A stretch of DNA of 41,272 nt from a virus. Position 1 is the first letter of the stretch. The number at the start of each line of letters is the position of its first letter. A program made the translations under genes and the position numbers. Under the pieces are notes generated by a model, which ran no database searches, was not told the DNA's origin, and worked only from the letters and a program-made list of their open reading frames with translations. The DNA lies in IMG/VR virus record IMGVR_UViG_3300020215_000038, positions 1-41,272 of that record. One strand, given 5' to 3'. This document shows, one piece after another, positions 141 to 25,646 of the stretch.

Positions 141-1383
141 ACTCTGCGAACTATATCCGAAAAACCTTGCTTTGATCTGCCGCAAGGAATTTACGGACTT
201 AAAAGACTCGACGATCAAGGACTTCGAGCTTTACACGGGCCTGAAGGTCGGATCGAACAAAGACGTGGTCCTACCGAACGGCTCGACGATCATGTTCCGG
301 CACGGCGAGGAGCTAAACACGCTCCAGAATATCAACCTCGGGGTCTGCGGAATTGAACAGGCTGAAGAGTTCGACGACGACTCGCAATGGTTCATGCTCT
401 TCGGACGCATGCGCCGCAAAAACTGCGGCAACCCCTCGCTTTTCCTCATCGCCAACGCCAACGGGGACAACTGGATTAACCGCCTTTGGCCGCAAGCCGG
501 TGACCCCTCTCACAAGCCCTCGCCGGGTTATGAGCTCTACGAAGCGACGACTTACGACAACGCCGACGTCCTCCCGGAGGCGTTCTTGAATAGCCTCGAG
601 ACGCTCCGCGTTCAAAAGCCCTCGGTTTATGAGCAGTATGTCTTAAATAGCCGAAAGGTCACCTCGGGGAAGATTTTCCCGATGTGGGACGAGCGCTTCC
701 ACGTCATCCCCGATCAAGAATTCCCCGAGTGGTGGGAGACCTTCGGCGCGATGGACACGGCCGTCGCGTCAGGCGTCTTCTGCGCCAAGCTCTACAAGGT
801 GACCCCCGACGGCGACGTCATCGCCTTCCGCGAATACTACGCCAAGGAGCGCCTGATCTCCGAGCATTGCCGCTCGATCCTCGAGATGGCCGAGGGCCAC
901 CAAGTTTCTGTGTGGTACGCCGACCCGTCCGCGTTCAATAAGACCCGCGAAAAGATGGGCCGCCTCTACTCGGTCGCAGACGAGCTTTTAGACGCCGGCA
1001 TCACGGTGGTCCCGGGCGAAAACGACGTCAACGCCGGCATCAACCGCATGGGCGAATACCTGAAGGTCGATCTAAACCGCTTCCACCAATTCCACAACAT
1101 CCCCGGCATGCCGCGCTTTATGGTCACCGAGTCTTGCGTGAATACCCGCCGGGAGATCCCGAATTACCGCGAAGTCCCGAATAAGATTTCAGACCGCGGG
1201 GACCGCAAGTGGATGCCGTACAAAAAAGATGACCACTCGGTCGACACAGACCGCTACGCCCTTATGAGCCGCCAGTCGGCCTCGATTGAGCCCGCAAAGG
1301 CCGCCCCGCGCCACACGCCGGGATGGTATCTCGAGCAGAAAGAGCAGAAGTTCGTCCATTCTTCGAGGGGTTTTCGCTCATGA
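22..1383 (+). CDS. terL: Terminase large subunit
   Basis: 453 aa; Walker A-like SAWGTGKS near N-terminus, Walker B-like LGVCGIEQAEE, C-terminal nuclease-type acidic motifs (FGAMDTAV, DDHSVDTDRYAL); follows terS and precedes the portal. Confidence 0.9.
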   Translation: MEIKLKPYQDGFIFTEAPFPAMVSAWGTGKSLCLILRVLRLCELYPKNLALICRKEFTDLKDSTIKDFELYTGLKVGSNKDVVLPNGSTIMFRHGEELNTLQNINLGVCGIEQAEEFDDDSQWFMLFGRMRRKNCGNPSLFLIANANGDNWINRLWPQAGDPSHKPSPGYELYEATTYDNADVLPEAFLNSLETLRVQKPSVYEQYVLNSRKVTSGKIFPMWDERFHVIPDQEFPEWWETFGAMDTAVASGVFCAKLYKVTPDGDVIAFREYYAKERLISEHCRSILEMAEGHQVSVWYADPSAFNKTREKMGRLYSVADELLDAGITVVPGENDVNAGINRMGEYLKVDLNRFHQFHNIPGMPRFMVTESCVNTRREIPNYREVPNKISDRGDRKWMPYKKDDHSVDTDRYALMSRQSASIEPAKAAPRHTPGWYLEQKEQKFVHSSRGFRS

Positions 1384-1484
1384 AAGCGGCCCTCTTTATT
1401 TCGCTTTGCCTGGTTCTCGCCGGCTGTGCCGCGTGTGAGAAATACCGCGAGTATATCCGTCTGACCGAGGGCATAAACGCATGA
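1380..1484 (+). CDS. 34-aa putative lipoprotein microgene (MKAALFISLCLVLAGCAACEKYREYIRLTEGINA)
   Basis: Not in ORF track (below size cut-off); ATGA overlap with terL stop and ATGA overlap with portal start; lipobox L-A-G-C. Confidence 0.5.
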   Translation: MKAALFISLCLVLAGCAACEKYREYIRLTEGINA

Positions 1485-4364: not shown

Positions 4365-5306
4365 ATGGAAAACGAGCCTAAAGAGACGTTCGATAAGGCG
4401 GTCGACTCGGTGGTCGACGGTCATTTCGACCGTGGGGCGGCGGCCCCGGAGGCGAGCTCCCCTCAAACAAGCGCACCCGAGCCCAAGGATGAAGGAGGGA
4501 GCGACCCTCTAAAAACGCCCAGCAATCCGGCGGCCGGCGGGGAAAAGGTCACACCTGGAAAGGAATTCGGCCCCGTTCCTTACGACAAGTTCCAGGAGGC
4601 CATTCGTAAGAGGCAAGAAGCGGAGAGGCAGCTCCAGAATTTCTCCTCGCTTCTTGACGACCCTGAAGTGTTCAAGCGGTATCTCGAGCGGCAAGGGTAC
4701 TCGAAAGACGAGATCCGCGAGGAAATGCGCTCGCGCGGCATGGCGGTCCATGAACCGGGCCAGGCCAAGTCGATTTATGACCGCGTGATGGAGCGCGTGT
4801 ACGGAGATCGGGCGCACGCTTTGAAGCCAGAAGAAGCGGCCGAAATCCGGAACATCGTGGCCTTGATCGAGGCCGCCTCGCGTGAGATCGCCGACGAGAC
4901 CACGCGCCCGCTCAAGGGCTTTGTGGAATCAAAGCAGCGTGAAGAGGCCGTCGACGCCGAGCTTTCTGAGGCCGAAGAGGCAGCCAAGGAAGACGGCATC
5001 GACTTTGAGAAAGAGGCAATCCCCGGGATGCAGCTTCTTCTCAAGGAAATGCAGGATCGGGACCCCCGGTATCGCCGGAACCCGCCCTCTGCCATGTTCC
5101 TCTACAACGCGGCCGCCAGGCGAATTCTGAAAGAAAAGACGGTTTTAAGGGGTCGTCAGGAAGCGCGGGACGAGAAGAAGGGCAACGCCCGACCGCTCTC
5201 GCCTCAAGTCACCGGGAAACCCGCCGAGCCGAAAAAGCACGTCAAAACCGCCGATATCGACGCGGAAATTGACGCGCAGCTCGACGCGATGGGCTACCGG
5301 GGATAA
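4365..5306 (+). CDS. Scaffolding-like protein (acidic, helical/coiled-coil)
   Basis: 313 aa, E/K/A/R-rich, directly upstream of the major capsid gene. Confidence 0.6.
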   Translation: MENEPKETFDKAVDSVVDGHFDRGAAAPEASSPQTSAPEPKDEGGSDPLKTPSNPAAGGEKVTPGKEFGPVPYDKFQEAIRKRQEAERQLQNFSSLLDDPEVFKRYLERQGYSKDEIREEMRSRGMAVHEPGQAKSIYDRVMERVYGDRAHALKPEEAAEIRNIVALIEAASREIADETTRPLKGFVESKQREEAVDAELSEAEEAAKEDGIDFEKEAIPGMQLLLKEMQDRDPRYRRNPPSAMFLYNAAARRILKEKTVLRGRQEARDEKKGNARPLSPQVTGKPAEPKKHVKTADIDAEIDAQLDAMGYRG

Positions 5307-5326: not shown

Positions 5327-6313
5327 ATGGCAACCATTACGGTTCCCTCGCAAGAAAACGCGAGCATTTTTGAGACCCTCGCCACCCATATCTTCGAGAA
5401 CCACGGCGAAGAGATTGGCAACGCGGCGATCGCCAAGAACTACACGATGATGATGCTGGACCGCAAAGGGTCCAAGAAAATCGTCGACGGCGGTCTGGAT
5501 TTCGCGGAGCCGGTCCTTATCCGTGAGAACTCGAACTTCGGCTTCGGGAATGCCTATAGCCAGATCGACGCTGACTATCAGGACATGACCCGTGAGTTCA
5601 AGTTCGACCCGAAGGTGTATCGGGGGACGTTGGTCATCAATGCTCTGCACGAAGCACAGAACGACGGCCGGTCGGCTATCAAGAAGCTTCTGAAGACGAT
5701 CCGGCTCCAGGCGGACACGACGATCGAAAACGACATCAACGCGGCTCTGTGGACGGCGTCGCCGGCCGCGAACGCGCCCGAGTCGATTCGCTCGATCGTT
5801 TCCGACACCCCCACGACGGGAACCCTGGGCGGCATCACGCGCCTGGGGAACTCCTACGCGCAGAATGGAGCGTATACGACCGCGATCACGGATATCGGTT
5901 CCGAGGCCGGCCTGTCGACGCTCCACGCTGAACGCGCCACGATGGGCGGCGATGCGAAGACGGCTCCGGATATCGCGGTGACCACCCCTATTCTTTGGGG
6001 CGGTCTCTTCGGTTACATGGACAACCTTCGGCGCATCAAGGCCGATGAAGAGGTCGTGAAGCTCGGTTTCGACAATTTCTACGTCGGAACCGCTCTTCTG
6101 GGTCATGACGCTGCATGCCCTGCGAGTCATTTTTACTATCTGAACTCGCGGCATCTGTTCTTCAAGATCCTGAAGAAGGGCAATTTCGTGTTCGAGCCGT
6201 TCTCCCGCAAGGATAACAGCCTGAACTCGACGTCCATCTTCTATCTCTTCTACAACCTCACCACGAACCTGCCGGCGGCCCACAAGGTCCTGACGGCGGT
6301 TTCGACGACCTAA
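5327..6313 (+). CDS. Major capsid protein
   Basis: 328 aa ORF after the scaffold-like gene; position and size; the antisense 329-aa ORF is a GC shadow. Confidence 0.75.
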   Translation: MATITVPSQENASIFETLATHIFENHGEEIGNAAIAKNYTMMMLDRKGSKKIVDGGLDFAEPVLIRENSNFGFGNAYSQIDADYQDMTREFKFDPKVYRGTLVINALHEAQNDGRSAIKKLLKTIRLQADTTIENDINAALWTASPAANAPESIRSIVSDTPTTGTLGGITRLGNSYAQNGAYTTAITDIGSEAGLSTLHAERATMGGDAKTAPDIAVTTPILWGGLFGYMDNLRRIKADEEVVKLGFDNFYVGTALLGHDAACPASHFYYLNSRHLFFKILKKGNFVFEPFSRKDNSLNSTSIFYLFYNLTTNLPAAHKVLTAVSTT

Positions 6314-6327
6314 AGGGAGAAGCGACC

Positions 6328-6873
6328 ATGAGAAAAGCTCTTTTTGGCTTCCTCGCGCTCCTTCTTTCCGCGGGCGTGGCGATGGCCTACGACCAGCCGG
6401 TCGATCCCGGGCTCGTTGAGCATGGGGGTTCGTCGGCTGCCGAGGGCGTGAAAGTCTACCGTCTGGTCCGGAACCCGGTGGTTCTGGCCAACACGGGCTC
6501 TTTCAGCTCCGGCGAAGTCGTGGTTTGGGACACGGTGTCCGATGACAACGTGACGGTCAACTATCCGAGCCGGGTCGGCATCACGGGTTCGAGTGATGCT
6601 GTGGCGGGTGTGGTTGTTGGGACGATCCCGACGGCCGACTCGACCGGCACGGCGGTGACCGATCTTGGCAAGCGGAACTGGGGCTATATCCAGATTTACG
6701 GTAAGGCCCTGGCTTCGGTTGACGGGACCGGCATCACCGTCGGTCGCGGTCTTCGCGCCTCGCAGTTTGACGGCGCGTTCGTCGCGGCTGAGACGACCGA
6801 TTCCGGTGGCGTCGCGTTCGCGTACGACACCACGACCACGGGGCAGATCGAAGTCTTCGTGAGGAATCGTTAA
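6328..6873 (+). CDS. Beta-rich Gly/Val/Thr protein with N-terminal Sec-type signal peptide; pattern resembles DUF2190-type capsid decoration/cement proteins
   Basis: MRKALFGFLALLLSAGVAMA/YD signal; SD gggaga 7 nt upstream; sits right after the capsid gene. Confidence 0.7.
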   Translation: MRKALFGFLALLLSAGVAMAYDQPVDPGLVEHGGSSAAEGVKVYRLVRNPVVLANTGSFSSGEVVVWDTVSDDNVTVNYPSRVGITGSSDAVAGVVVGTIPTADSTGTAVTDLGKRNWGYIQIYGKALASVDGTGITVGRGLRASQFDGAFVAAETTDSGGVAFAYDTTTTGQIEVFVRNR

Positions 6874-6876
6874 GCA

Positions 6877-7155
6877 ATGAAAACAGGCGTGTGGGGGTTC
6901 GTTCTAGCCGTTCTGGCGGCAGTCGGCTCCCACACGCCATGTTTTGCCGACGAGGTGGAAGTGCCGTTCTCGGTCTACGCCGAGCGCTTCCAGGCCGAGG
7001 CCAAGGAAAAGGGCCTTAACCTTTCGTGCGCCGACGAGGCCGACGGCTGCATCAAGACAAACGGCACATTTTTTGTGGTCATGACGTACAAGCCCCTGAC
7101 CGAAAAGGGGCGTGAGCTGATTAAAGAGCTTTCGTTTAAACACATGAGGCGGTAA
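6877..7155 (+). CDS. Small secreted protein (92 aa)
   Basis: MKTGVWGFVLAVLAAVGSHTPCFA/DE signal-like N-terminus. Confidence 0.6.
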   Translation: MKTGVWGFVLAVLAAVGSHTPCFADEVEVPFSVYAERFQAEAKEKGLNLSCADEADGCIKTNGTFFVVMTYKPLTEKGRELIKELSFKHMRR

Positions 7156-7895
7156 TGGCAAACACGACCTTTGCGAACTTAAAAAAAAGCTGCCTCCGGA
7201 AGGCCGGGAACTGGTACACGGCCTCCGATTCGACGCTGCTCGAGGTCGCGGGCGGCCTTATTAACGACTGCATTTCGACGATCCAGGCGCTTTCGCCCGA
7301 TTCGCTCTACTGGCGAGACTTAGACAACACCGTCTCGACGACCGCCTCCCAAGCCTACGTCGACCTTTCGGAAACCGACATCCTTCAGATCCTAAACGTC
7401 TACCAGCGCGAATCCGACACGAAGCTGACGCGCGTGGACCGGAGAACCTTCGTGGGTTTGAGCCCGGACACGACGGCGCATTCGGGGACGCCCGACCTCG
7501 CCTACGACGAGGAGCAAATCCTAAACGTGAGCGGCCAGAACATCTTCCGTCTCTATCTTCTGCCGACGCCGGGGAGCGCCATCACGATCCGCTACGACTA
7601 CATCAAAAACGGCCGCTTTACAGCAGACGGAACGGCCGCCGACTCCGAGTTTTGCGCCCTGCCGTCGACGTTTGACCCGCTTATAGCCGCGATGTTTAAG
7701 CCTCGCTTTTTAGAGGTTTTAAGCCCCCAGGATACCGGCGCGATCACGAAGGCCGAGAATGCCGAGAGCGAGGCGATTTCGCGTTTCTTGCCGCTTCTCA
7801 CCTCAAAGATTGACGAGTCTTGGCAGGTGGGGTCCTTCCGGTACGCCCGGAACCGAAAGCCCTTCACCGTATCCGCAACCCCGACCCCGTCATGA
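7155..7895 (+). CDS. Virion protein, possible head-tail adaptor
   Basis: 246 aa; TAATG junction with upstream gene; position between head and tail genes; no motif verified. Confidence 0.55.
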   Translation: MANTTFANLKKSCLRKAGNWYTASDSTLLEVAGGLINDCISTIQALSPDSLYWRDLDNTVSTTASQAYVDLSETDILQILNVYQRESDTKLTRVDRRTFVGLSPDTTAHSGTPDLAYDEEQILNVSGQNIFRLYLLPTPGSAITIRYDYIKNGRFTADGTAADSEFCALPSTFDPLIAAMFKPRFLEVLSPQDTGAITKAENAESEAISRFLPLLTSKIDESWQVGSFRYARNRKPFTVSATPTPS

Positions 7896-9070
7896 GAATA
7901 GACGAGCTAAAGCTTAACTTCTCCGACATCCGCGAGCGGCTTGTAATTTTCTTTGTCCTCCTCATGCCGTTCTATCTAAACCACTCGAAGAACTTCGGAA
8001 ACCTCACGATGCGCGTGACGCATGAGCATTTCTTCGAGCTTTTCGCGATCTTTATATTCGCGTTCATGATCCGGAATATTTGGGTCGCCATCGGGCTTAT
8101 CTGGACGCTGTTTCTCCACATCTTCCACGACTTTACCGGCGGCGTGTACCTCCGAAACATCTTTTCGTTCGCGATTATTTATTTCGTCGCCCGGGAAATC
8201 ATGACGCACGAGCTTAGCCGCCGGGTTATAAGGGCGATCCCGATCCTCCTTGCGGTCCAGGTCTGGATGATGGTTCTTCAGATCATCCGCTTTGACGTTC
8301 TTTTCAACTCCGACCAGGGAAACCGCGTCGAAATCGTGGGCTTTATGGGCCTTAAAGCCATCTCCGGGATGTTTATCGCGATGCTTATCCCGTTTGTCCA
8401 TCCGGTCGTCGGTTTACTAAGCCTGGTCCTTATCGCCGTCACGTCCGAATCAACTGGCGCTCTCCTTGGGGGCGTGGCGGCGTTTGTTTTTTCGCTCTAT
8501 CACCGATCAAAGCGCCTCTTTATCGCGGCGCTTGTTGTGTTGACCATCGCCGCCGGCGCCTTCGCTTACAAAGACTCTTTCGCCGGGATGTTCACCGACC
8601 GCGCGCGGCTCTGGAAGGTTGTCTTAAAGGACGCGGTGACGCACCCCATCGTCGGCTTTGGCCTTGATTCCTTCCGGAAGGTGACCGACAAAAAGCCATT
8701 CATGTATTTCAAGGACGTGCCGACCCAGGAAACGGGGAAGGCGATACCCACAAAGGACGGCTTCTTCGGTGACGCAAAGGTTTTCACGCCGGACGCCACG
8801 GCCGACCCCTGGGATAACGCCCACAACGAGTACGTCATGAATTTCATGGAGTTCGGGATCTTGGGACTCCTCATCCCGTTTTTTCTTTTCCGGGATTTGG
8901 CCCGGCGATTCCGGCCGACCGAGGCGTCGGTGGCCATCGGCGGGTATTTCATCGCGCTTCTTGTCATGTCGATCGGGCAATTTCCGTTTCATCTTGTCCG
9001 GATCATGTTTTTATTCCCGGTCCTATTAGCCATCTACGAATACGAAACCGTCTTTTTTACAAAGGAGTAA
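7892..9070 (+). CDS. O-antigen ligase / Wzy_C-family polytopic membrane protein (start refined to ATG 7892)
   Basis: 392 aa, many hydrophobic segments; signature blocks DRARLWKVVLKDAVTHPIVGFGLDSF and DNAHNEYVMNFMEFGILGL; ATGA overlap with upstream stop. Confidence 0.8.
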   Translation: MRIDELKLNFSDIRERLVIFFVLLMPFYLNHSKNFGNLTMRVTHEHFFELFAIFIFAFMIRNIWVAIGLIWTLFLHIFHDFTGGVYLRNIFSFAIIYFVAREIMTHELSRRVIRAIPILLAVQVWMMVLQIIRFDVLFNSDQGNRVEIVGFMGLKAISGMFIAMLIPFVHPVVGLLSLVLIAVTSESTGALLGGVAAFVFSLYHRSKRLFIAALVVLTIAAGAFAYKDSFAGMFTDRARLWKVVLKDAVTHPIVGFGLDSFRKVTDKKPFMYFKDVPTQETGKAIPTKDGFFGDAKVFTPDATADPWDNAHNEYVMNFMEFGILGLLIPFFLFRDLARRFRPTEASVAIGGYFIALLVMSIGQFPFHLVRIMFLFPVLLAIYEYETVFFTKE

Positions 9071-9073
9071 GTC

Positions 9074-9925
9074 ATGGCAGAGAAAGCGGGCTTGACCCAG
9101 AAGAACATCGAAACCGTGAACGAGTTTCAGAAGGAAATGGAGACTAAAGCGCTTCTGGCCAAGTCCATCCAGGAACTCGACGCCCAGCAGAAGTCGATTA
9201 AGGGCGTCATCCGGCAGCTCCAGGCCGAGTACAACGAAAAAGACAAGCAATTCCGGCAGATTTTGGCCGAAATCGGCTACCAGTCGAACACCCTGGCCAA
9301 TATCGAGCGCCAGATCGCCCAAAAATCGAAGGAAGCGCTCGACCGGATCGCCGAGAAAGAAAAAACCCTCGACACGCACGTCGCCGAGTACCAAAAAGCC
9401 CGGAACGAATACGAGGCTCTCTTAAAAGAGCAGCGCCGCCTGACCGAGGAGCTAAAAACCAAGTCCCAGAAGCTCACCGAGGACTCGGACCGCTTAAAAG
9501 CCTGGGTTGAGACCGCCACGCAGTCGATCAACGACCGCGAGAAGGCCTATGCGGAGTCGCAGAAAGCCGTCACCGACGACGTGAAGAAGCTAAAAGCGGC
9601 CAAAGAGGCGGCTGAGGCCGCCGAGAAGGCCCTGGCGGCCAAAAAGGCCGAATACGCCAAGACCGACAAGGAATACGCGCTTCAAAAAGAGGCCCTCGAC
9701 AAGCAGCGCGAGGCGCTCGAGGCCAAGCGCCAGAAGGACGAGGACGACTACAAGGCCGCGATGGAAAAGGTCGTGACGCTCAAGGCCTCCGTCGAAGCCG
9801 AAAAGCGCGACTTAAAAGACCAGGCCGATGCGGTCCGCGAGGAGCGGCTTCGCGTGACGGCGCTTGAAAAGCGCGTGAACGACCTCATCAAGCGCTACAA
9901 CCTCGAAAAGGAAGCGAAGGGTTAA
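9074..9925 (+). CDS. Long coiled-coil protein (K/E/A/Q-rich)
   Basis: 283 aa; SD aggag 6 nt upstream; heptad-like composition. Confidence 0.65.
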   Translation: MAEKAGLTQKNIETVNEFQKEMETKALLAKSIQELDAQQKSIKGVIRQLQAEYNEKDKQFRQILAEIGYQSNTLANIERQIAQKSKEALDRIAEKEKTLDTHVAEYQKARNEYEALLKEQRRLTEELKTKSQKLTEDSDRLKAWVETATQSINDREKAYAESQKAVTDDVKKLKAAKEAAEAAEKALAAKKAEYAKTDKEYALQKEALDKQREALEAKRQKDEDDYKAAMEKVVTLKASVEAEKRDLKDQADAVREERLRVTALEKRVNDLIKRYNLEKEAKG

Positions 9926-9928
9926 AGC

Positions 9929-10249
9929 GTGTCGGACATCTCACTTGAACCGCTTTTAAATTCGCGGCTCGTTAAAGGGCCTTCCGGCCCCACGACCAAC
10001 CGCCAGGTAACGCTCGTCTCGGGTACGCCCAAGAAGGTGACACCCACGTCGGGTTGCAGCGCCATGCACATCTTTAACAATACCGCCGTCAATATCCGAT
10101 ACGGCGGCTCGGGCGTGGACGGCTCGTCTGGGGTCGTTTTGTTTAACCAGTCGACGCTTGTTATCAGCTCGCCGAAATCGGATTTCGAGATTCACTTTTT
10201 CCAAGGATCCGGAAGTGACAAAACGCTGGATATTGTCGAGTTTTTTTAG
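9929..10249 (+). CDS. Hypothetical virion-module protein, 106 aa (GTG start)
   Basis: ORF track; ends TTT TTT TAG within a T7 run. Confidence 0.5.
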   Translation: MSDISLEPLLNSRLVKGPSGPTTNRQVTLVSGTPKKVTPTSGCSAMHIFNNTAVNIRYGGSGVDGSSGVVLFNQSTLVISSPKSDFEIHFFQGSGSDKTLDIVEFF

Positions 10250-11642
10250 CCTCGTCCTCGCCTCAGGCGTCGCCCTGGCCGACGGCCCGAGCCTTCCTCC
10301 GCTTACGGTGGAGGAGCAAGACGGGAGTCCCGCTGTTATTCCGGTCCTAAAGATCAAAGTCTCGAACGGAACGCTGACCGATGACACCGGCGGGACGGTT
10401 TCTCTTACAACGGGCGGTGGTGGTAGCTCCGGTAGCCCCGGAGGTTCCAACACGCAAGTCCAATTTAATGACGCCGGGTCTTTTGGAGGGGATGCGGGGC
10501 TTGTCTACAACAAAACCACAGACAGCCTTTCGATAAACGGCGATGTCACGATTTCTGGCGACAACGTAACACTTGCCACGAACACCGACCGCTTCGTTCT
10601 TATGGCGAACGGTTCGACATACGCCCCGGAGGCCATCGACCTCGGCACCGACACGACCGGAAATTATGCGGGATCCTCGTCAGAGGGCGGGGCCGCGACG
10701 ACGGCGACGGCCCTAGCCGCAAACGGCGCAAACTGCACGGCTGGCAACTATCCTCTTGGCGTGGATGCCTCCGGAGCCGTTGAAACCTGCACCGCCGATG
10801 ACGACGTTCCGGATGCCGGTGAGGTGAGCGATACCGCTCTTGCCGCTGGTGCTGTGGATGGCGGGAACGCCGGAGAAATTGAGGATGCGAGTGTTACTGC
10901 CGATGACCTTGGAGCGGATTCGGTCAGTTCTTCCGAATTAAACGCCACGGGTGTTGAAGCCGAGCTCGAGGCCGTCCTAGACCTAAACGAACTCCAAGCT
11001 CAGATCGGAGACGCCCAGATTGCGGACGGAGCCGTGGACGGTGGTACGGGTGGCGAGATCGCGGACGGATCACTCACGACGGCCGACTTGGGCTCAGGCT
11101 CCGTAGCAGACGATGAACTCGCCACGACCGAGTCGATCCAGCTTCAAGTCCAGAGCGCCAAGGTGACTGGGGCCTTTGTGACGGCGACGGTCAGCGGAGC
11201 GGACACTTCGACCCAGGGCGCTCAAATTGACGCCGGTGACGGGAACTGGCGGCTTCTATTCGACGCCACGACCGACGAAGCGGCTGTGTGGGACGTAAGG
11301 CTCCCAGACTATTGGGCCGCACATTCGGAACTCAAAATTATGTACTCCATGACATCTGGCACAGCAAACGAAGTCGAGTTTGAAGCCGCCATCATGTGCA
11401 TCTCGCCCGGGGATGCTGCGGACATTGGAACCGCGAGTTTTGCGGCTGCTGCGGTTGCAGCGGACACGGTTCCGGGTACAGCCGGACACCCGGATGCGGT
11501 GAATATTACTCTTACCGACGACTCTTGTGCTGCTGGGGATCAGATGTTTATTTACGTCTCAACAGATGCGGATGACGCAACAAACGACGACGCAACCGGG
11601 GACCGCGAGGTGGTGGACGTTCTTTATGAATTTACTCGTTAG
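10215..11642 (+). CDS. Tail-fibre-like protein with signal-peptide-like N-terminus (start proposed GTG 10215; track start TTG 10158)
   Basis: SD-like aagga 7 nt before GTG; (V/M)TKRWILSSFFSLVLASGVALA/DG; Gly/Ser linker then NTQVQFNDAGSFGGDAGLVYNKTTDSLSING fibre-type motif; internal repeats. Confidence 0.6.
   Translation: MTKRWILSSFFSLVLASGVALADGPSLPPLTVEEQDGSPAVIPVLKIKVSNGTLTDDTGGTVSLTTGGGGSSGSPGGSNTQVQFNDAGSFGGDAGLVYNKTTDSLSINGDVTISGDNVTLATNTDRFVLMANGSTYAPEAIDLGTDTTGNYAGSSSEGGAATTATALAANGANCTAGNYPLGVDASGAVETCTADDDVPDAGEVSDTALAAGAVDGGNAGEIEDASVTADDLGADSVSSSELNATGVEAELEAVLDLNELQAQIGDAQIADGAVDGGTGGEIADGSLTTADLGSGSVADDELATTESIQLQVQSAKVTGAFVTATVSGADTSTQGAQIDAGDGNWRLLFDATTDEAAVWDVRLPDYWAAHSELKIMYSMTSGTANEVEFEAAIMCISPGDAADIGTASFAAAAVAADTVPGTAGHPDAVNITLTDDSCAAGDQMFIYVSTDADDATNDDATGDREVVDVLYEFTR
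10851..11139 (+). repeat. Two diverged copies of a 33-aa fibre repeat (AVDGGNAGEIEDASVTADDLGADSVSSSELNAT / AVDGGTGGEIADGSLTTADLGSGSVADDELATT)
   Basis: 18/33 identical residues by eye; copies start at about 10851 and 11041. Confidence 0.6.
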
Positions 11643-12366
11643 CCTCCTTCTTCTCGTCTCAACGACCGCGTTCGCAAACGTCGAGTACGACGGGACCGAT
11701 GACATGCAGTCCTGCGGGACAAGCGACGTCATTACCGAAAACGGGGCCATTACGATTTGCTGGTGGGCCAACCGAAACGGGGCGGGTGGTGGTGGTAATG
11801 CTCGTATCCTACAGCGTGGCTCGGTCGTTTTATTCTTAACCGGGACAGGATCCCTTTCTTACGAGTTTCAGGTGGCTGGAACAACGACGCTCCGACGCGC
11901 AACGGCCAATAGCACGATAACGGCCGATACTTGGGAACATTGGTGCGTGAAATGGGACGGCTCAACAACCGCCGCAAACGCCGATATATTTAAAAACGGA
12001 ACCGAGACGACCTACCAGGCGACTGTGAACGGCGCCACGCTCACCAATAACTCGACCGACACCCTCTACATCGGGAACCGCGCTGACGGCCTCCGTGCCT
12101 GGGACGGGTTTATTGATGAGTTTGCGGTTTGGAGTTCCCAGCTTTCCAACGCCGAGATCGCACACCTGGCGGCCAGCCGGACTCGAGGACTCCCACTTCA
12201 AATTAGCCCTTCGAGCCTTAAATATTACCTCCCGTTTGACGAGTGCGCCGAAGGGGCTGCTTGTGCCACCGCCTCGATGTTCCGAGACCGCTCCGGCCAA
12301 GGCAACCATTGCTCACCGTCCAACAACCCGACCGGCAGAGGGGGAGCGATCCTGTCGTATCCATGA
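11626..12366 (+). CDS. Secreted LamG / concanavalin-A-like lectin-fold protein (start refined to ATG 11626)
   Basis: MNLLVSLLLLVSTTAFA/NV signal; W.HW..KWDG...IFKNG...LYIGNR...WDGFIDEFAVWSSQLSNAEI matches the Laminin_G_3 pattern. Confidence 0.7.
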   Translation: MNLLVSLLLLVSTTAFANVEYDGTDDMQSCGTSDVITENGAITICWWANRNGAGGGGNARILQRGSVVLFLTGTGSLSYEFQVAGTTTLRRATANSTITADTWEHWCVKWDGSTTAANADIFKNGTETTYQATVNGATLTNNSTDTLYIGNRADGLRAWDGFIDEFAVWSSQLSNAEIAHLAASRTRGLPLQISPSSLKYYLPFDECAEGAACATASMFRDRSGQGNHCSPSNNPTGRGGAILSYP

Positions 12367-12806
12367 AAAAACTATTTGTTGTCGCTTTGCTTTTAACACA
12401 GAACGCCTACGCCGAGGAAGTGGTGACGCATTCCGGCTCTACATACCACGGCTGCTCGTCCATCGGTAATACGAGCGTGTTTCTGACCAACCCAAACGAC
12501 TACAGCACAATCAAGCCCGGATACATCTACCTTCCGAATGGGTGTAAGAGCCTTCCGGCGGTTCCGGCCAAATACCTAAAGGTCGAAAACGGCTCTGTCG
12601 CTGAAATGACGCAGAGCGAGAAAGACGCAGTAGACGCTCCAGACCTTGCCGCCGCAACGCTTATATCCGAGCGTGAAACGCTTCTTTCTCAGATTGAGGC
12701 AGACGACACGAACTGGGCCAGCATGACAACCGCCCAGAGGCTGGCGGTGGCTAAAAAACTCCTGAGGCTTGAGGTGCTTAAAAAAAGGCTCGGAGGCAAT
12801 TCATGA
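12363..12806 (+). CDS. Secreted protein, 147 aa (start refined to ATG 12363)
   Basis: ATGA overlap with LamG stop; MKKLFVVALLLTQNAYA/EE signal peptide. Confidence 0.65.
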   Translation: MKKLFVVALLLTQNAYAEEVVTHSGSTYHGCSSIGNTSVFLTNPNDYSTIKPGYIYLPNGCKSLPAVPAKYLKVENGSVAEMTQSEKDAVDAPDLAAATLISERETLLSQIEADDTNWASMTTAQRLAVAKKLLRLEVLKKRLGGNS

Positions 12807-12904
12807 CGCGCAGACAGATCCTCAGACGAAACAACGTCCGTTACTGGCTCGTTGTTTTGGGCTATTTTGCGCTTGTTTTCAGCGCGAGGCTCTCCCATGC
12901 CTAA
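12803..12904 (+). CDS. 33-aa signal-peptide-like microprotein (MTRRQILRRNNVRYWLVVLGYFALVFSARLSHA)
   Basis: ATGA overlap with upstream stop; ends 8 nt inside the next gene; basic n-region plus hydrophobic core; not in track. Confidence 0.35.
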   Translation: MTRRQILRRNNVRYWLVVLGYFALVFSARLSHA

Positions 12905-14477
12905 ATTCACCGTCGCGCCGCACGGCGGCTTAAACCTCCGATTCCCGCAGCATCGCCTGACCGATAGAAAGACGCAGAAGGTCCGGCGGCTTGTGAACTT
13001 TATCTCGCTTGATGGTGTCATTAAGAAAATGAAGGGCGCGGAGCGCTATGATTCGACCTCCCGCGGCGCCTCATGCACCTGGCTTAAACGCATCTATTAC
13101 GAGGACAGCGGGGACAAGAAGCGCTATTTATTCGCCATCATCGACGGAAAGATGTTCCGGGGGACGGATCACAACCAGCTTTTAAACCAGGTAAAGATCA
13201 GCAAATCTTTCGACTCCCTGATCGACCCGAACGTGTTTCCGCTGGACTGCACCATCAAGGTCGCGGACGTCGTTTCAACCTTCGTCGTCGACGGGAAAAA
13301 CTTCTTTAAATTCAACGGCAACGACGGCGGGGAATGGGAGAAGCTCCCGACCAAGAACGACATCGACGGCAATGCGATCGAGCCGATCGACATGGTCGAA
13401 TACCTGGACCGCGCGTTTGTCCTCGTCAAAAACCGGAACGTCATCATCCACTCGAAGAACCTAAACCCCGAGGTTTACGACGACTCGACAGACTGCGGAA
13501 TCATCGACTGCCCGGCCGGGAAGGGCGGCTTCCCGCAGAAGCTCATCGTCCACCGGGGCTTTTTATTCGTGGTTCACGAGGACTATATCGCGCCGATTTC
13601 CGGTTCCTCCACGGCGACCTTCGGGATCCGGCCCGGCGACATAATCCACGGTTACGGCACGAGGGCACCGCGGTCGGTCCTGAATTTAAAAACTAAATTC
13701 GGGTTTTTGAACTCCTACGACAACGAATACTACACGACCACCGGCACCCAGGACGGCACCAATGAGACGCCCGTTTCCTACGAAGCGCCGCTGTCGCGCC
13801 TCATGAACCTCGTGAAGGCCAAGGACACCGTGGCGCACCTGGATACTGAGCTTAACTGCATCCGGATTAGCTACGTCCCGGCCGGCGGCTCGAGGCTTAA
13901 CGAGGAGATTCTTTTATCCCTCACCGAAGGCGAGGGCCGGGACGGCGGCGGCAAGTGGTGCGGCCAGACGCGCGGATTCGGCATCAACTGTTACGCCCAA
14001 TGGAACGGCCGAAACGACCAAAACGAACTCACCATCGGCCGGTCCGATTCGGGCCTCGTCATGTTCATGAACCGGACGCAGAACATCGACGGAAGCCCGA
14101 TGTTTGTCGATTTCGTCTCGGCCGACTACAGCGACGACGAGACAAGCGAGCTTCAGTTTGAAGAGTTCTGGATCGACGGAAAGCCCACGGGCGACTTCGG
14201 CATCCCGTTTTCCTACTACCTCGACAGCCGCTTGACGACCGTGGGGCAGCAAGACCTTGAAATGACAGGCGAGCAGATCAACCTCGGTTTAATCGAAATC
14301 GCAGACCAAGAGACTTTCGTAAACGGCTTTCGCCCCAGAATCGACCGCTCGAAAGGGCGGATGATCCGATTTCAGATCACGGGGAACCTTTTAAACCGCG
14401 ACATCGAATTTAATACGATCCACGTTTTCTATAACAAGCAGTTTACGAAGTTCTCGAAAACTCTAGTCGGGAGATAG
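12897..14477 (+). CDS. Large tail structural protein (nozzle/tubular-like by size and position); start proposed ATG 12897
   Basis: 526 aa; gagg 6-7 nt upstream of ATG; the track N-terminal extension (TTG 12852) lacks support. Confidence 0.6.
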   Translation: MPKFTVAPHGGLNLRFPQHRLTDRKTQKVRRLVNFISLDGVIKKMKGAERYDSTSRGASCTWLKRIYYEDSGDKKRYLFAIIDGKMFRGTDHNQLLNQVKISKSFDSLIDPNVFPLDCTIKVADVVSTFVVDGKNFFKFNGNDGGEWEKLPTKNDIDGNAIEPIDMVEYLDRAFVLVKNRNVIIHSKNLNPEVYDDSTDCGIIDCPAGKGGFPQKLIVHRGFLFVVHEDYIAPISGSSTATFGIRPGDIIHGYGTRAPRSVLNLKTKFGFLNSYDNEYYTTTGTQDGTNETPVSYEAPLSRLMNLVKAKDTVAHLDTELNCIRISYVPAGGSRLNEEILLSLTEGEGRDGGGKWCGQTRGFGINCYAQWNGRNDQNELTIGRSDSGLVMFMNRTQNIDGSPMFVDFVSADYSDDETSELQFEEFWIDGKPTGDFGIPFSYYLDSRLTTVGQQDLEMTGEQINLGLIEIADQETFVNGFRPRIDRSKGRMIRFQITGNLLNRDIEFNTIHVFYNKQFTKFSKTLVGR

Positions 14478-14478
14478 C

Positions 14479-15891
14479 ATGAAACGCCGCCTTGCGCTTG
14501 TCTTTTCATTCATCCTTGCCACCCAGCCGGCCCAGGCCGGTCTGATCTCATTACCCGAATATTTAAGTGGTAACGACGTCACGATCTCGAACCTAAACAC
14601 GACGAACACGACGCTCGAGGACACGATCAACGGCGGCATCGCCGGCGGCGGCGTGAATATCCAGCCCGGGTCCATCACCTCGATCGACATGGCGAACTCC
14701 ATTTCTCCCGTGAAGCGCTGGGACGAGGCGTTTTCGGACTTTACGCCCTCGGGGATGCTCCCGGCGACCTCGGCGAACCTCACCTCGAATATTTCGGCGG
14801 GTGTGTCCTACGTGAACGGCCTCCGAATCGAGAAAAACGCGACCGCCAACACCTACACGGCCTCGAAAGACACGTATGTCTACATTTCAGAGACCGGAAG
14901 CTATCAATTCCAGGAAGTCGCCAACGGCGCCGCGGCCCCGGCGACTCCGGCAAATACGCTCCTCCTCGCGAAGGTCGTAACCGACACCGACAACATCACG
15001 TCGGTCTCGGACCTACGGTCGACGAGCATCACCATCACGGCGACGGCCTCGAACTTCCCGTTGAATTACCGCGACCAGGCCTTTATTTCCTGGGACTCGA
15101 CCACAACCACCCACGTCGAGCCCGGAAACCTCGCCATCGGGACGACGATCTATACCCGGACCTCCGACACCTCGTCGCGGAACATCACGACCGCCGCGAA
15201 CTGGATCGAAGGGGGTGTGCCGACTCTCACGACCCCGATCAAGGTCTATATTTACGCCTACAACGACTCAGGCTCCTCGTTTGATTTCAAATACTCATCC
15301 GCAGACCCGGTCTATTCGGATACCTCATCGAACACGGCCGGAATCCTTCGCTATTACACCTCGGGCGGCACGAACTACCGGGCGATTGGATGGCTTTTGG
15401 CCTCGGCCGACGCGGTGCAGTCCCACCACATCGGCAATTTTTACGACATGGGGGTCCGAAACGTCGTCCGAAACACCTACACCGCCGTCCGGGCGATCAC
15501 GACCGCGATGCCCGCCGACAACACGACCCCGCTTATCAGCGAAGGCCAGGAGGTCTTCCGCGTGGCCATCGTGCCGTCTAACGCGAGCTCTAAGATCCGC
15601 GTAACGGCCAAGGTCTCGATGGCCCCAAGCACGAGCGAACGCGCGTCCGCTGCGCTCTTTGACGGCTCAAACCAGCTTCTGACGGCCCAGGCCTCGCCGA
15701 CCGGCGCGACAAACCATCAGCTCACACTTACGACCATTCACACGCCCGGGACGACCAATTTTGTTGAATACAAGGTCCGCGCTGGCGGCCATTCGTCCTC
15801 GACCGCGTACTTAAACGCCAACGAATCGGGGACCGGGTTCTATAGCGGGCTCCTCAACACCTTTATCGAAGCCGAGGAGATCGGAGCGTAA
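14479..15891 (+). CDS. Tail fibre / receptor-binding-like protein with classical signal peptide
   Basis: MKRRLALVFSFILATQPAQA/GL; then fibre-type N-terminus (SNLNTTNTTLEDTINGGI...) and the motif YVNGLRIEK...TYVYISETG...LLLAKVVTD..ITSVSDLR. Confidence 0.65.
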   Translation: MKRRLALVFSFILATQPAQAGLISLPEYLSGNDVTISNLNTTNTTLEDTINGGIAGGGVNIQPGSITSIDMANSISPVKRWDEAFSDFTPSGMLPATSANLTSNISAGVSYVNGLRIEKNATANTYTASKDTYVYISETGSYQFQEVANGAAAPATPANTLLLAKVVTDTDNITSVSDLRSTSITITATASNFPLNYRDQAFISWDSTTTTHVEPGNLAIGTTIYTRTSDTSSRNITTAANWIEGGVPTLTTPIKVYIYAYNDSGSSFDFKYSSADPVYSDTSSNTAGILRYYTSGGTNYRAIGWLLASADAVQSHHIGNFYDMGVRNVVRNTYTAVRAITTAMPADNTTPLISEGQEVFRVAIVPSNASSKIRVTAKVSMAPSTSERASAALFDGSNQLLTAQASPTGATNHQLTLTTIHTPGTTNFVEYKVRAGGHSSSTAYLNANESGTGFYSGLLNTFIEAEEIGA

Positions 15892-16103
15892 TGGAACGAA
15901 TCATCGTCCCGAAAACGACACCCGAGCAAGAGGCGTTTTTGAACCGCCTGATGGACGGCGCGTTCGGCGCCCCTATCATCTTCGACTCGGCCCCGACGGC
16001 GTCCCAGCTAAACCCGAACACATGGGGGAAGCACTCGACCGATGTTTACGTGAAATTTTCAGACGGGGTCACATTAAAACTCACCGGAACCGTCGTTAGC
16101 TAA
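15891..16103 (+). CDS. Hypothetical 70-aa protein after the fibre gene
   Basis: TAATG junction; ORF track. Confidence 0.5.
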   Translation: MERIIVPKTTPEQEAFLNRLMDGAFGAPIIFDSAPTASQLNPNTWGKHSTDVYVKFSDGVTLKLTGTVVS

Positions 16104-17854: not shown

Positions 17855-19094
17855 ATTCCTGGACGAACCGGCGGCGCCGAGGCGTGGACGGTTTTTGGAT
17901 GAATCACCGTCACTTGTCGATGTATTGCCAGGAGCGCGAGCGGCGAAAATCGTCGCCGACAAATATGAAGGCTTAAAAAGTGGTTTTGCGGATAGGGTCT
18001 CTAAATTAGCCCCAGATAACATATCGGTTCCCGCGCCCCGGCTTGGTTTACACACGGCACTTTTACCGAACGTTATGCCTCTCAGGCCCGTCAAAATGCC
18101 CGCCAGACAAGCAATAAAGGAGGGGGCTGAGGCGGCTTTTGACATGGCGTCGGGTGAAGTGGCGGGTCCAGCCGTCAGGACTACGGGAGCTGTAATTAAG
18201 GGAGTCTCCAAAATCCCGTCCTGGATTGGAGGCCGTGCGATTAATTTCAGAATCAAGCCGAGCAATTATCAATTTTCTTACGGTCGCAATCCGGGACAGG
18301 CCGTCGCTGAAGAAATTGGCCCGAAGCTCACTATGGGGCAACTCGAGAGAGCTGTTGGAAAGCGGTCTGCTGAGTTGGGGTCTGACGTTCAATCAAGATT
18401 AGACAAAGAAGGTTACATTGACGTTAGCGACGCCTTTGAAAATTACCTGCAAAGAATCGGAAAGCTAAACCGATCAAAGCGGGCAAATAAAGGTATCGTT
18501 GGAGACCTAAAAGATCAACTGACCGATTTTGCTGAAACCGGAATGTCTGAGATGGGGCTTCGGATGGGAGGAAATCGAGCTTATATTCCCGCCAACAAAG
18601 CTTTGGAGTTTAAGCGATTTGTTGCGGACCAGGGTTCCTTTAAGTCCCTTGATCCAGCTACTCGTTCAGTCGCAAAAGCGGTTAATAAATTCCATGCAGA
18701 CACCAATAAAGGGATCCGCAAATTTGATCCAATTGCTGGCCAGAAAAGCCATCGCCAATCGGAACTCATAGCGGCCGAGGGTGCTATTAAGGCCAGAAAA
18801 AACACAGAGCAAAGGTTTTGGCCGATAGCTTTGCAAGAGGCGGCGCTTTTGGGCGGCGCTGGAGCTGGCGGGTTTCTCGGCGCTGGCCCGGAGGGGGCAA
18901 TGGCTATTTATGCGGCATTAAAAGCGGCTCGTAGCACCCCTGGAGCCACAACGCTCGCATCGGCCATGGGACGTACAGGCAAAGGGATGCGACTGGCAGG
19001 GGAGGCTATGCAGTCGTTTCCCGACGTCAGCCCAAGAAAAGCCTTGCTAAGAATTTTAAGTAATTCAGGAAAGTCTCTAACGGCGCGGACTTAA
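17847..19094 (+). CDS. Internal-virion/ejection-like protein (415 aa, TTG start, N-terminal GRFLDE duplication)
   Basis: Strong SD gggaggagg 7 nt before TTG 17847. Confidence 0.55.
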   Translation: MGRFLDEPAAPRRGRFLDESPSLVDVLPGARAAKIVADKYEGLKSGFADRVSKLAPDNISVPAPRLGLHTALLPNVMPLRPVKMPARQAIKEGAEAAFDMASGEVAGPAVRTTGAVIKGVSKIPSWIGGRAINFRIKPSNYQFSYGRNPGQAVAEEIGPKLTMGQLERAVGKRSAELGSDVQSRLDKEGYIDVSDAFENYLQRIGKLNRSKRANKGIVGDLKDQLTDFAETGMSEMGLRMGGNRAYIPANKALEFKRFVADQGSFKSLDPATRSVAKAVNKFHADTNKGIRKFDPIAGQKSHRQSELIAAEGAIKARKNTEQRFWPIALQEAALLGGAGAGGFLGAGPEGAMAIYAALKAARSTPGATTLASAMGRTGKGMRLAGEAMQSFPDVSPRKALLRILSNSGKSLTART

Positions 19095-19239
19095 TATCCG
19101 CGAGACGTGGAACTGAATTCGCGATATGCAAAATCCAATTCGCGCACGCGCAGACAAGGCTGATGCCAAAAGCGACCAAAATAATTTTTAAGTGCTTGTT
19201 GAGCGGTGGTTCTTTTTTTGGGCTAGCTAAATAGACCAT
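19027..19239 (-). CDS. Small membrane protein (70 aa)
   Basis: ORF track; one hydrophobic segment IILVAFGISLVCACANWIL; converges on and overlaps the end of the 17847 gene by 68 nt. Confidence 0.35.
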   Translation of the reverse strand: MVYLASPKKEPPLNKHLKIILVAFGISLVCACANWILHIANSVPRLADIKSAPLETFLNYLKFLARLFLG

Positions 19240-19260
19240 AATCCGTCAATGAAAGTGGGG

Positions 19261-19578: not shown

Positions 19579-19802
19579 TAATGTCCTTTCGTTTTTATAC
19601 GAGTGCCGCGATCCCATAACTCGGGATACCCGGTTTTGACGCACCAAATAAACACGCGGATCATCGAAATTGCAAAGTATAAAAGGACAAATGATTCTGC
19701 GAGTGGGTAGATATCTAAAGAGATGAATATGGCGACTGCTCCGACAAATATGAATATAATCGCGCCTTCCCTGGCCACAAACCGCTTAAAGCGACCCATC
19801 AA
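19578..19802 (-). CDS. Two-TM membrane protein (74 aa)
   Basis: ORF track; 4-nt overlap with upstream minus-strand gene. Confidence 0.55.
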   Translation of the reverse strand: MMGRFKRFVAREGAIIFIFVGAVAIFISLDIYPLAESFVLLYFAISMIRVFIWCVKTGYPELWDRGTRIKTKGH

Positions 19803-20059: not shown

Positions 20060-20156
20060 GGGGATCTCCTTGTTTTCATTCCTCATTACGGTAGCACAAG
20101 GAAAAGCCTTTTTGGCTAAATGGGAATGTTAATAAAAACGAAGGTCGAGGGAGGTT

Positions 20157-24935: not shown

Positions 24936-25204
24936 AAACCCTCGTCAAGCGCGGCCGCCCCATGAAGCGCGAGTCCATCGTCGAAGAGGCGCTCATGGAA
25001 ATCCAGTCCCTCGCCGACACCGGCATCCTCTACGCCAACACGCAGGTTCCGAACCCGGAACTCCGGAAGGCCGTCCGATCGATGTTTCACCGCATCGTCC
25101 GGAACGCCTTCGTGGCGCAGTCGGCCAACCGCGGGGAGAAGACCGCCACGCACGAATTCAACCGCCATATCGAGGAGCTCCTGGGCCATGAAGCTCTCAA
25201 TTAA
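24932..25204 (+). CDS. Hypothetical 90-aa early protein (KRGRP basic N-terminus)
   Basis: ATGA junction; internal ATG of track ORF 24836. Confidence 0.55.
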   Translation: MKTLVKRGRPMKRESIVEEALMEIQSLADTGILYANTQVPNPELRKAVRSMFHRIVRNAFVAQSANRGEKTATHEFNRHIEELLGHEALN

Positions 25205-25646
25205 CGCGGCCCTTCTGGCTCTCGCGGCCATCCTCGTCCTCGGCATGTTGGCCCTCGTCCTCATCTGGACCGAGGAGGCCGAAGCCGTCGAAATCAGCCT
25301 TCCGGCCATCGCGCAAATCGAAAGCTCGGGCCGGGATTTCGTCGTAGGCGACAACGGCCACGCCTTCGGGCGGTATCAGATCACCGCCCCCGTGATCCGC
25401 GAACACGGACGCTACACCGTCGCCGAAGCGAAAGCCTCTCCGGCCAAACAGGAGGAAATCGCGCGTTGGTATCTCGGAAAGCGCATCCCGGCCATGATAC
25501 GCGCCTACGGGAGGCCCGTGACGGTCCGGAATATCCTTGTGGCCTACAACGCCGGGATCGCCTACGTAAAAACGGGCAAGCCGCTTCCTAAGACAACGCG
25601 GGATTATCTCAAAAAGTATGAACGGCTGACGGGGGTGGCGTCATGA
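25188..25646 (+). CDS. Lytic transglycosylase (SLT domain) with N-terminal signal-anchor (SAR-endolysin-like)
   Basis: 152 aa; AALLALAAILVLGMLALVLIW then IAQIESSG (catalytic Glu-Ser), GRYQI, AYNAG. Confidence 0.8.
   Translation: MKLSINAALLALAAILVLGMLALVLIWTEEAEAVEISLPAIAQIESSGRDFVVGDNGHAFGRYQITAPVIREHGRYTVAEAKASPAKQEEIARWYLGKRIPAMIRAYGRPVTVRNILVAYNAGIAYVKTGKPLPKTTRDYLKKYERLTGVAS

Follow-up and report, generated by a model that had tools for sequence, protein, structure and literature searches.

Six open reading frames (ORFs) in the structural module of the phage genome held as IMG/VR virus record IMGVR_UViG_3300020215_000038 were confirmed, on sequence criteria, as carrying predicted canonical signal peptides for the Sec pathway and signal peptidase I. 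The window, i.e., the whole stretch of 41,272 bases that was analysed, is essentially the whole genome of this phage. The signals are restricted to peripheral proteins of the module, and structural modelling shows two of the carriers, the products of genes A and F below, with the predicted folds of a decoration protein and a tail fibre, which are true virion component types. The explanation we propose is that the surface proteins are exported and cleaved, may undergo modification in the periplasm, and at lysis join particles built in the cytoplasm, a proposal we hold to be about evenly balanced between right and wrong. The six genes are the following.

Gene A, 6328..6873, plus strand: 181 amino acids; predicted signal at residues 1-20, MRKALFGFLALLLSAGVAMA/YD; directly 3' of the major capsid gene.
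Gene B, 6877..7155, plus strand: 92 amino acids; small protein with a predicted signal, conserved directly 3' of A.
Gene C, 10215..11642, plus strand: 475 amino acids; GTG start; predicted signal (V)TKRWILSSFFSLVLASGVALA/DGPSLPPLTVEE; low-complexity, fibre-like.
Gene D, 11626..12366, plus strand: 246 amino acids; predicted signal MNLLVSLLLLVSTTAFA/NV, then a Laminin_G_3 lectin-like domain (Pfam E = 1.4e-20); variable cassette.
Gene E, 12363..12806, plus strand: 147 amino acids; predicted signal MKKLFVVALLLTQNAYA/EE; variable cassette.
Gene F, 14479..15891, plus strand: 470 amino acids; predicted signal MKRRLALVFSFILATQPAQA/GLISLPEYLSGNDVTI; tail-fibre-like, with a TNF-like jelly-roll tip.

The signals were called with a heuristic scorer of our own. 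A positive call needs an n-region that is not negative, a hydrophobic core free of charged residues, small residues at positions -3 and -1, and no proline at +1. All six N-termini were found at the coordinates listed above, and exactly these six of the 21 genes in the structural module were flagged, as expected from the original prediction, which had described n-h-c signal peptides on the same six ORFs and a LamG domain on D. It had also claimed that the core proteins lack such N-termini, and the scorer agrees: no core protein is positive, this core comprising the terminase, portal, scaffold, capsid and adaptor proteins, a coiled-coil protein, proteins of 106, 526 and 70 residues, and three ejection-like proteins. 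When all 270 ORFs of at least 50 residues in the window were considered (both strands, longest starts), nine were positive, three of which are A, B and F. Given no lipobox (L-[AS]-[GA]-C, with the cysteine at +1) is found at the cleavage sites of A to F, lipoprotein signals processed by signal peptidase II are ruled out for them; two other ORFs of the window, at 1380-1484 and 38410-38577, do have one. Twin-arginine translocation signals are likewise ruled out, since the n-regions are of the MKK or MRK type and no twin-arginine motif (S/T-R-R-x-F-L-K) occurs in the six.

The calls would be an artefact if the starts were mis-assigned, or if chance hydrophobic N-termini preceded proteins that are really cytoplasmic. 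Some details fit such an explanation: the start of C is a GTG within a longer ORF, A has an in-frame ATG at codon 19, and D, when started at 11626, has an n-region with no positive charge, although in-frame ATGs upstream at 11566 and 11572 would supply an arginine. However, Met19 of A is not conserved among its homologues, Shine-Dalgarno-like sequences precede the methionine codons of the signal peptides, and the pipeline of the source database independently chose the same starts for E (147 residues), a 33-residue ORF between E and the next gene, the 526-residue tail protein and F. In F there is no in-frame ATG, GTG or TTG within the 40 codons after the start, hence a start downstream of its signal is impossible. 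These observations speak against true starts downstream of the signals, which the original prediction had named as a finding that would overturn it. The cleavage site of B is less certain: the scorer places its best site after residue 14, while the originally proposed site CFA/DE, after residue 24, agrees with the relatives, in which the signal ends immediately before a conserved DE or DG.

The signals are kept across hundreds of homologues at just 30-55% identity. For F, 152 database homologues with 36-70% identity were found, and nearly all of the full-length ones begin with MKK or MKR, followed by a hydrophobic run and an A-[Y/F/H]-A site, directly after which comes a conserved mature N-terminus, G-T-I-S-x-x-P-F-I-S-G-N-D-V-T-I. 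In an alignment of 92 F sequences, the alanine at -1 (87/92) is the sole nearly invariant residue in the first 30 positions; position -3 is A, C, S or V in 87 of the 92, position -2 is mostly Tyr, Phe or His, the signal has a median length of 19 residues, and 80 of the 92 have a net charge of +2 in their first eight residues. Under a strict score, 101 of the 120 listed F sequences pass, and the 19 that fail are fragments, have miscalled starts or carry sites of the CYA/G type close to the threshold. Two start-truncated F calls were re-examined, of which P0071 has an in-frame upstream signal peptide; for P0027, an F homologue located behind an inserted HNH endonuclease, the signal status is ambiguous.

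Family A presents the same picture, with 46 of 47 homologues positive. A profile search over 1.84 billion representative proteins yielded 388 clusters at 50% identity for A, and among further representatives 131 of 134 are positive, the exceptions being two over-extended starts and one fragment. The -1 position is alanine in 39 of 42 sequences and the -3 position in 35 of 42, a net charge of +2 is found in 38 of 42, and the median signal length is 21.5 residues; the best eight-residue hydropathy is about 3.1 in the signals of both the F and A families. Aligning the homologues, a check suggested together with the original prediction, thus finds the N-terminal extension conserved. The smaller families agree: all B homologues (in the related loci L001, L014, L053 and L055) keep the signal, as do the C homologues in L001/L013 (1471 residues), L055 and L054, where it ends right before a conserved DGP-x-x-PP motif. 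Residues within the signals are not conserved, only their physico-chemical pattern and the cleavage site, which is the expected product of selection by Sec and signal peptidase I. These values support the signals being genuine, under selection and present clade-wide.

The stretch from the Wzy_C gene described below to the large tail protein is a variable cassette in L001/L013, L014, L015, L016, L003 and L053-L055. Its genes are often not homologous to D or E, yet many of them bear signals; LamG, CBM_4_9 and fn3 domains are found among their products, many of which contain a carbohydrate-binding domain (LamG or CBM_4_9). Core proteins never carry signals. In L014 and L015, signal-bearing LamG proteins occupy the position of D. 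In comparison with control loci, i.e., phage loci whose F-like fibres have no signals, signal-positive ORFs near F are enriched: 29/143 (20%) for the clade loci versus 10/260 (3.8%) for the controls. Together with the scorer and start-codon results, this and the family-wide n/h/c pattern and -1 alanine at low identity effectively refute chance or wrong starts, and we leave that explanation a negligible probability. The closest cultured relative by capsid protein, Myxococcus phage Mx8, has no signal peptide on any of its 14 structural-module proteins. Among these 14 is p49, an experimentally assigned virion protein located at the position of A; a homology of A to p49 was considered and rejected, given no similarity is detectable.

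Some further observations concern the surroundings of these signals in other loci. Signals are also found on two adjacent fibre-like genes at the end of the structural module in L035 (8467-11779; L044 matches L035 in the fibre ORF) and in L038 (8263-11098), and the cultured-phage fibres that share short motifs with these fibre-like proteins have no signal. Given these lineages, signal-bearing fibres may extend beyond the clade studied here. In L003 (9346-9888), L004 (8548-9090) and L057 (880-1395), an HNH homing-endonuclease gene is inserted, in opposite orientation, between the genes for the large tail protein and the F homologue; the L057 insertion directly adjoins the start of F, whose signal has apparently lost its n-region. 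Public gene calls of signal-bearing homologues often start at an internal methionine and drop the signal (e.g., L054, 2773-2958, and L058, 1426-1500), so that protein sets in databases under-report signals.

The identities of A and F were approached through AlphaFold2 models (predicted local distance difference test, pLDDT, of 85 for A and 90 for F), compared with known structures by Foldseek. Profile searches of Pfam, PHROGs, NCBIfam and the PDB were uninformative for A, B, C, E, F and the 526-residue protein, the only sequence traces being a faint match of F to the C-terminal part of Pgp3 and a weak, uninformative match of A to phrog_38844. The model of A matches the Pam3 cement protein, the HFTV1 decoration protein and the N-terminal base of the phi29 head fibre gp8.5, as well as proteins of Borrelia BB1, Sf11, E217, T1 and TW1 and, lower, lambda gpD, SHP and P74-26, with Foldseek probability 1.0, E-values of 5e-5 to 1e-3 and target-normalised TM-scores of 0.5-0.72. 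Gene A starts 15 nucleotides after the stop codon of the capsid gene, and the order is the same in L001, L014, L015 and L053. Given this fold and the position directly after the capsid gene, A is best read as a putative capsid decoration protein. The original prediction, which had it as merely accessory, undersold it: judging by the modelled fold, A is a decoration-protein homologue.

In the model of F, a helical segment at the N-terminus is followed by beta-rich middle domains and, at the C-terminus, by a TNF-like jelly roll, which matches the C-terminal domain of Chlamydia Pgp3 (Foldseek E = 5e-9), a secreted trimeric protein. Matches in BFVD are to entries labelled tail fibre, tail-collar fibre, Mtd-N and receptor-binding, and the model is like a trimeric fibre. 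The central domain (about residues 60-200) also turns up in about 30 further viral contigs, in proteins of fibre size whose N-termini are ordinary cytoplasmic ones; since signal-less fibres share this domain, F would be a tail-fibre homologue that has acquired a signal. Its gene has a strictly conserved tail gene on either side, in the stretch from the large tail protein to the ejection-like genes. The mature parts of A and F contain no cysteines, which rules out disulfide formation as the reason for exporting these two.

The same signals could also be borne by exported proteins that are not part of the virion, i.e., structural relatives that have been repurposed and which, acting with Wzy_C late in infection or during lysogeny, would remodel, coat or mask the envelope of the host. 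Their roles might then include superinfection exclusion, receptor decoys, protection of progeny from re-adsorption to debris, and adhesion. This would agree with the lectin-like or carbohydrate-binding nature of the cassette proteins, with the glycan-active genes found among them (Wzy_C, a second Wzy_C, APS kinase and a faint sulfotransferase match), with the temperate lifestyle that the integrase indicates, and with the fact that the best solved-structure match of F is a secreted bacterial protein. Phage-encoded Wzy-type enzymes for serotype conversion are also known. However, A has a predicted decoration fold and directly follows the capsid gene, while F lies between strictly conserved tail genes and has a central domain common to ordinary fibres. 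The six genes belong to the late structural operon, where start and stop codons overlap, and not to a moron-like island. Moreover, were all six non-virion proteins, the module would be left with no recognisable receptor-binding protein: no receptor-binding candidate free of a signal is recognisable in it. Given all such candidates carry signals, the virion should contain one or more of the signal-bearing proteins. We consider a purely non-virion role unlikely.

In the explanation we propose, every surface-exposed accessory virion protein (A, B, C and F, together with the lectin-like cassette proteins D and E) would be made as a precursor with a cleavable signal for Sec and signal peptidase I. 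The Sec system of a diderm host would carry the precursors into the periplasm, where signal peptidase I would cleave them and the mature proteins would fold and trimerise. The co-encoded Wzy_C-family enzyme might modify them on the periplasmic face, using undecaprenyl-linked glycans. Meanwhile, DNA-filled capsids with portal, adaptor and tail core would be built in the cytoplasm, and the two pools would come together only once lysis breaches the inner membrane, whereupon the decoration protein and fibres would dock. For P22 tailspikes, T7 fibres and gpD-type decoration proteins, addition to particles is possible in vitro, which makes such late addition physically plausible.

A related possibility is that the N-termini act as membrane tethers, holding the decoration and fibre proteins at the inner membrane until cleavage or lysis, so that particles would be completed on the membrane and the proteins would not act prematurely. 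It draws on the same sequence features, and membrane-associated steps do exist in T4 head assembly. Nevertheless, the cores are short, with a median of 16-18 residues for the whole uncharged stretch (c-region included), and the highly conserved pattern at -3, -1 and -2 suggests proteins that are fully translocated and then cleaved on the periplasmic face, not stably anchored. We regard a tether as rather improbable; as its topology puts the mature domain in the periplasm, it merges with the export model unless translocation is blocked.

The enzyme that might modify the exported proteins is encoded beside the adaptor gene.

Wzy_C gene, 7892..9070, plus strand: polytopic membrane protein of the O-antigen ligase family (PF04932, 38.9 bits versus a cut-off of 31.7).

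Hydropathy shows eight or more hydrophobic segments in the protein, and its large loop, at about residues 228-314, is assumed to face the periplasm. Invariant in this loop among 20 sequences are R237, W241, GxGxDSF (255-261), D308, H311 and E313, with N312 nearly so, and the catalytic-loop motif His-Asn-x-Tyr...Glu-x-Gly (H311-N312-x-Y...E-x-G), which is the signature of enzymes of the O-antigen-ligase family, is intact. All 16 retrieved homologues carry PF04932, and the gene directly follows the adaptor gene in every relative covering the position (L001, L002, L003, L005, L014, L015, L016, L053 and L055). The protein has no NCBIfam match, its profile matches no PDB sequence, and, given no match to a solved structure exists, it is not assignable among WaaL, PglL and Wzy. 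The original prediction had spoken of an adjacent Wzy_C/PglL-family enzyme; the Wzy_C part stands, with synteny and an intact motif, whereas a PglL-type assignment is unfounded, as no PglL_A domain is present (Wzy_C is the only domain at E <= 0.01). Of the several readings it offered, the original prediction had favoured a periplasmic route by which receptor-binding proteins mature, linked to this enzyme, and that interpretation is partly supported. Further glycan-related genes were seen in the variable fibre cassettes of relatives: in L014, a second Wzy_C/O-antigen-ligase-like gene (7300-8436) lies just 5' of that for the large tail protein, and the cassette of L053 contains an APS kinase and a faint sulfotransferase-like match (5436-6568).

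The signals may be real and Wzy_C nonetheless unrelated to them, the enzyme modifying the O-antigen or lipopolysaccharide of the host (to alter a receptor or convert the serotype) and the proteins being exported for folding, for timing or to avoid ligands in the cytoplasm. This is compatible with the export model, and we hold it to be a serious, if tentative, possibility. The missing PglL_A domain is in its favour, as are the signal-bearing fibre-like genes of L035 and L038, which have no Wzy_C gene in the region covered, and the fact that no sequon is known; given the mature A and F have no cysteines, disulfides would not be the reason for export either. On the other hand, the fixed position between adaptor and fibre genes in every covering relative, at about 25-45% identity, is unusual for a conversion gene, and further glycan-related genes are found in the same cassette.

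Several points weigh against the explanation by export and late addition. The signal calls rest on the heuristic scorer and on family-wide conservation. The E-values of the fold matches of A are modest (5e-5 to 1e-3), and the phage collection contains no cultured relatives of A or F. Concerning the enzyme, besides the lack of a PglL_A domain or a solved-structure match, its link to export is confounded by phylogeny, since the synteny lies within one clade, and L035 and L038 show that the link is not obligatory. A decoration protein joining the capsid only at lysis is unprecedented, and dilution at lysis could make late joining inefficient. Lambda needs gpD to complete packaging, and the model would fail if this capsid likewise required its decoration protein for packaging. 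In its fullest form, that of two-compartment virions whose whole outer layer (cement, fibre and lectin-like proteins) is exported by Sec, processed and glycosylated by Wzy_C in the periplasm, and joined to the particle at lysis, the explanation is in our judgement doubtful.

In comparison with known systems, A resembles lambda gpD, phage 21 SHP, TW1 gp56, P74-26 Dec, the Pam3 cement protein and the phi29 gp8.5 base in its predicted gpD-type/beta-tulip fold, and gpD-type decoration proteins in its size (about 160 residues when mature) and in the position of its gene after the capsid gene. It differs in that every member of the A family has a predicted signal and no sequence similarity to the solved structures is detectable; to our knowledge, the known gpD-type decoration proteins are cytoplasmic and have no signal peptide. 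F is similar to podophage fibres and receptor-binding proteins (T7 gp17-type docking, TNF-like or jelly-roll tips) in its conserved N-terminal segment, central domain and jelly-roll tip, yet it has a conserved, predictedly cleavable signal, and the docking-like segment starts exactly at the predicted cleavage site. The window's Wzy_C protein shares with WaaL, PglL/PilO and phage Wzy polymerases the Pfam match, the polytopic topology and the loop with its arginine and H-N-x-Y...E-x-G, whereas its gene differs in lying inside a structural operon beside the adaptor, a position conserved in the clade.

Sec-dependent phage proteins are known, namely endolysins with signal peptides or with segments of the signal-arrest-release (SAR) kind, spanins, exclusion lipoproteins (T5 Llp, Cor) and the coat proteins of filamentous phages. 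The use of host Sec and signal peptidase would be common to these and to the six proteins, and the window also has a SAR-like SLT endolysin candidate and lipobox ORFs. However, the known cases concern lysis, exclusion or phages that assemble at a membrane, while here the carriers of the signals are homologues of decoration and fibre proteins in a tailed phage that packages DNA; a membrane-containing or filamentous phage is ruled out by the terminase, the P22-like portal, the Mx8-like capsid protein and the SU10-type adaptor. The nearest functional idea would be the glycosylation of virions in mycobacteriophages, in which phage glycosyltransferases glycosylate capsid and tail-tube proteins in the cytoplasm, although that route involves no export and the one we propose would lie in the periplasm. 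In the open-access full-text literature, no account of such signals on the decoration or fibre proteins of a tailed phage was found, which is not proof of novelty.

The remaining features of the module and of the lysis region are as follows.

Lipobox micro-ORF, 1380..1484, plus strand: 34 amino acids, MKAALFISLCLVLAG/C... (LAG/C); overlapping the stop codon of the terminase gene, with its end at the portal start.
Large terminase, 22-1383: Terminase_3.
P22-like portal, 1481-3400: match falls short of the Pfam cut-off.
Scaffold-like protein, 4365-5306.
Major capsid protein, 5327-6313: 25% identity to the Mx8 capsid protein; PHROG 9953 match.
Head-to-tail adaptor, 7155..7895, plus strand: SU10-adaptor type in relatives; no signal peptide.
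Coiled-coil protein, 9074..9925, plus strand: 283 amino acids; SMC-like coiled-coil matches only; no signal peptide.
Conserved 106-residue protein 5' of C, 9929..10249, plus strand: no signal peptide.
33-residue ORF, 12803..12904, plus strand: MTRRQILRRNNVRYWLVVLGYFALVFSARLSHA, i.e., MTRRQILRR...SHA, with an RR motif (TRRQILRR), a hydrophobic core and a terminal SHA.
Large conserved tail protein, 12897..14477, plus strand: 526 amino acids; no signal peptide.
Conserved gene of 70 codons directly 3' of F, 15891..16103, plus strand: no signal peptide.
SLT-domain lytic transglycosylase, 25188..25646, plus strand: Pfam SLT E = 4e-5; hydrophobic SAR-like N-terminus.

The window also encodes a tyrosine integrase (23179-24096), ERF/YqaJ recombination genes and two DNA methylases, and from its gene content, which includes the SLT-domain lytic transglycosylase, the phage is temperate and short-tailed (podovirus-like). 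At its two ends (1-120 and 41150-41272) the window repeats a stretch of at least 100 identical bases, as would be expected of a complete genome assembly that is circular or terminally redundant, and the same genes are present on public contigs of 41,286-41,288 bases. No tRNA genes were found in the window. Adaptor homologues in relatives match PF24175 SU10_adaptor in Pfam, while the window's own adaptor scores below that model. The 526-residue tail protein, which has no family or PDB match in profile searches, is nozzle-like by size and position only.

Both small ORFs that the original prediction had pointed out, the lipobox microgene at 1380 and the stand-alone signal-like ORF at 12803, exist. 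In the relative L001, a hydrophobic membrane-type ORF of 51 residues (5577-5732) overlaps the terminase stop codon in the same way, and the two look like a syntenic membrane micro-protein coupled to the terminase gene. The last codons of the 33-residue ORF (CAT GCC TAA) overlap the ATG of the 526-residue tail protein gene in the +1 frame. Given relatives have signal-bearing proteins of 90-120 residues at this position, the ORF may be a remnant of such genes, or it may encode a small membrane protein. A programmed +1 frameshift fusing it to the 526-residue protein was set aside as unsupported speculation, the ORF not being conserved in relatives.

The N-terminus of the SLT-domain protein, INAALLALAAILVLGMLALVLIW, is a hydrophobic segment rich in Ala, Gly and Leu that precedes the SLT domain. 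The protein is probably a Sec-dependent endolysin, and lysis in this phage is probably also Sec-dependent. The short signals of Gram-negative type, the lipobox ORFs and the SAR-like SLT endolysin candidate suggest a diderm host. When the host was sought through the labels of metagenome-assembled genomes (MAGs) with F-related loci, the labels were scattered (Syntrophaceae, Omnitrophota, Roizmanbacteria, Saccharibacteria and Ignavibacteriaceae) and unreliable, most of these loci having only the fibre domain in common with F; the sole chromosomal match, in Nitrospirota (L009), is to a distant phage whose fibre has no signal peptide.

Elsewhere in the window, a 103-residue protein (22071-22382) strongly matches the N-terminal domain of dATP/dGTP diphosphohydrolase (PF18909, E = 4e-32), which is known from phage pathways for nucleotide pools and DNA modification, and no adjoining partner enzyme was recognised. 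An island of lower guanine-plus-cytosine content (about 50% versus 57%), at 19027-20086 and 22756-22950 on the minus strand, contains small opposite-strand ORFs for exported or membrane proteins, two of which share the C-terminal motif Y-x-[YF]-K-D-x-x-G-[RH]-K-[VI]-G-[TS]-V-E-R; these look like cargo genes of the moron type. The ORF at 38410-38577 (55 residues) has a textbook lipobox (LIFSG/C) and could encode an o-spanin-like or exclusion lipoprotein.

The assembly of tailed phages is taught as purely cytoplasmic. The module described here is that of a podophage, and its outer proteins are predicted substrates of Sec. Given these signals are conserved in hundreds of lineages, on the putative decoration protein and on every fibre-like protein, part of the virion is implied to mature outside the cytoplasm. 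If two-compartment assembly is true, the process itself would be new, and it would represent the first extracytoplasmic leg of tailed-phage morphogenesis and the first periplasmic system for virion glycosylation. It would also raise the question of how two pools of parts meet at lysis, and virion surfaces may then bear periplasmic glycans, with consequences for host range, immune recognition and adhesion. For the annotation of phage genomes, a predicted signal peptide is no ground to exclude a structural role: pipelines discard or truncate such N-termini, and several database entries are mis-started.

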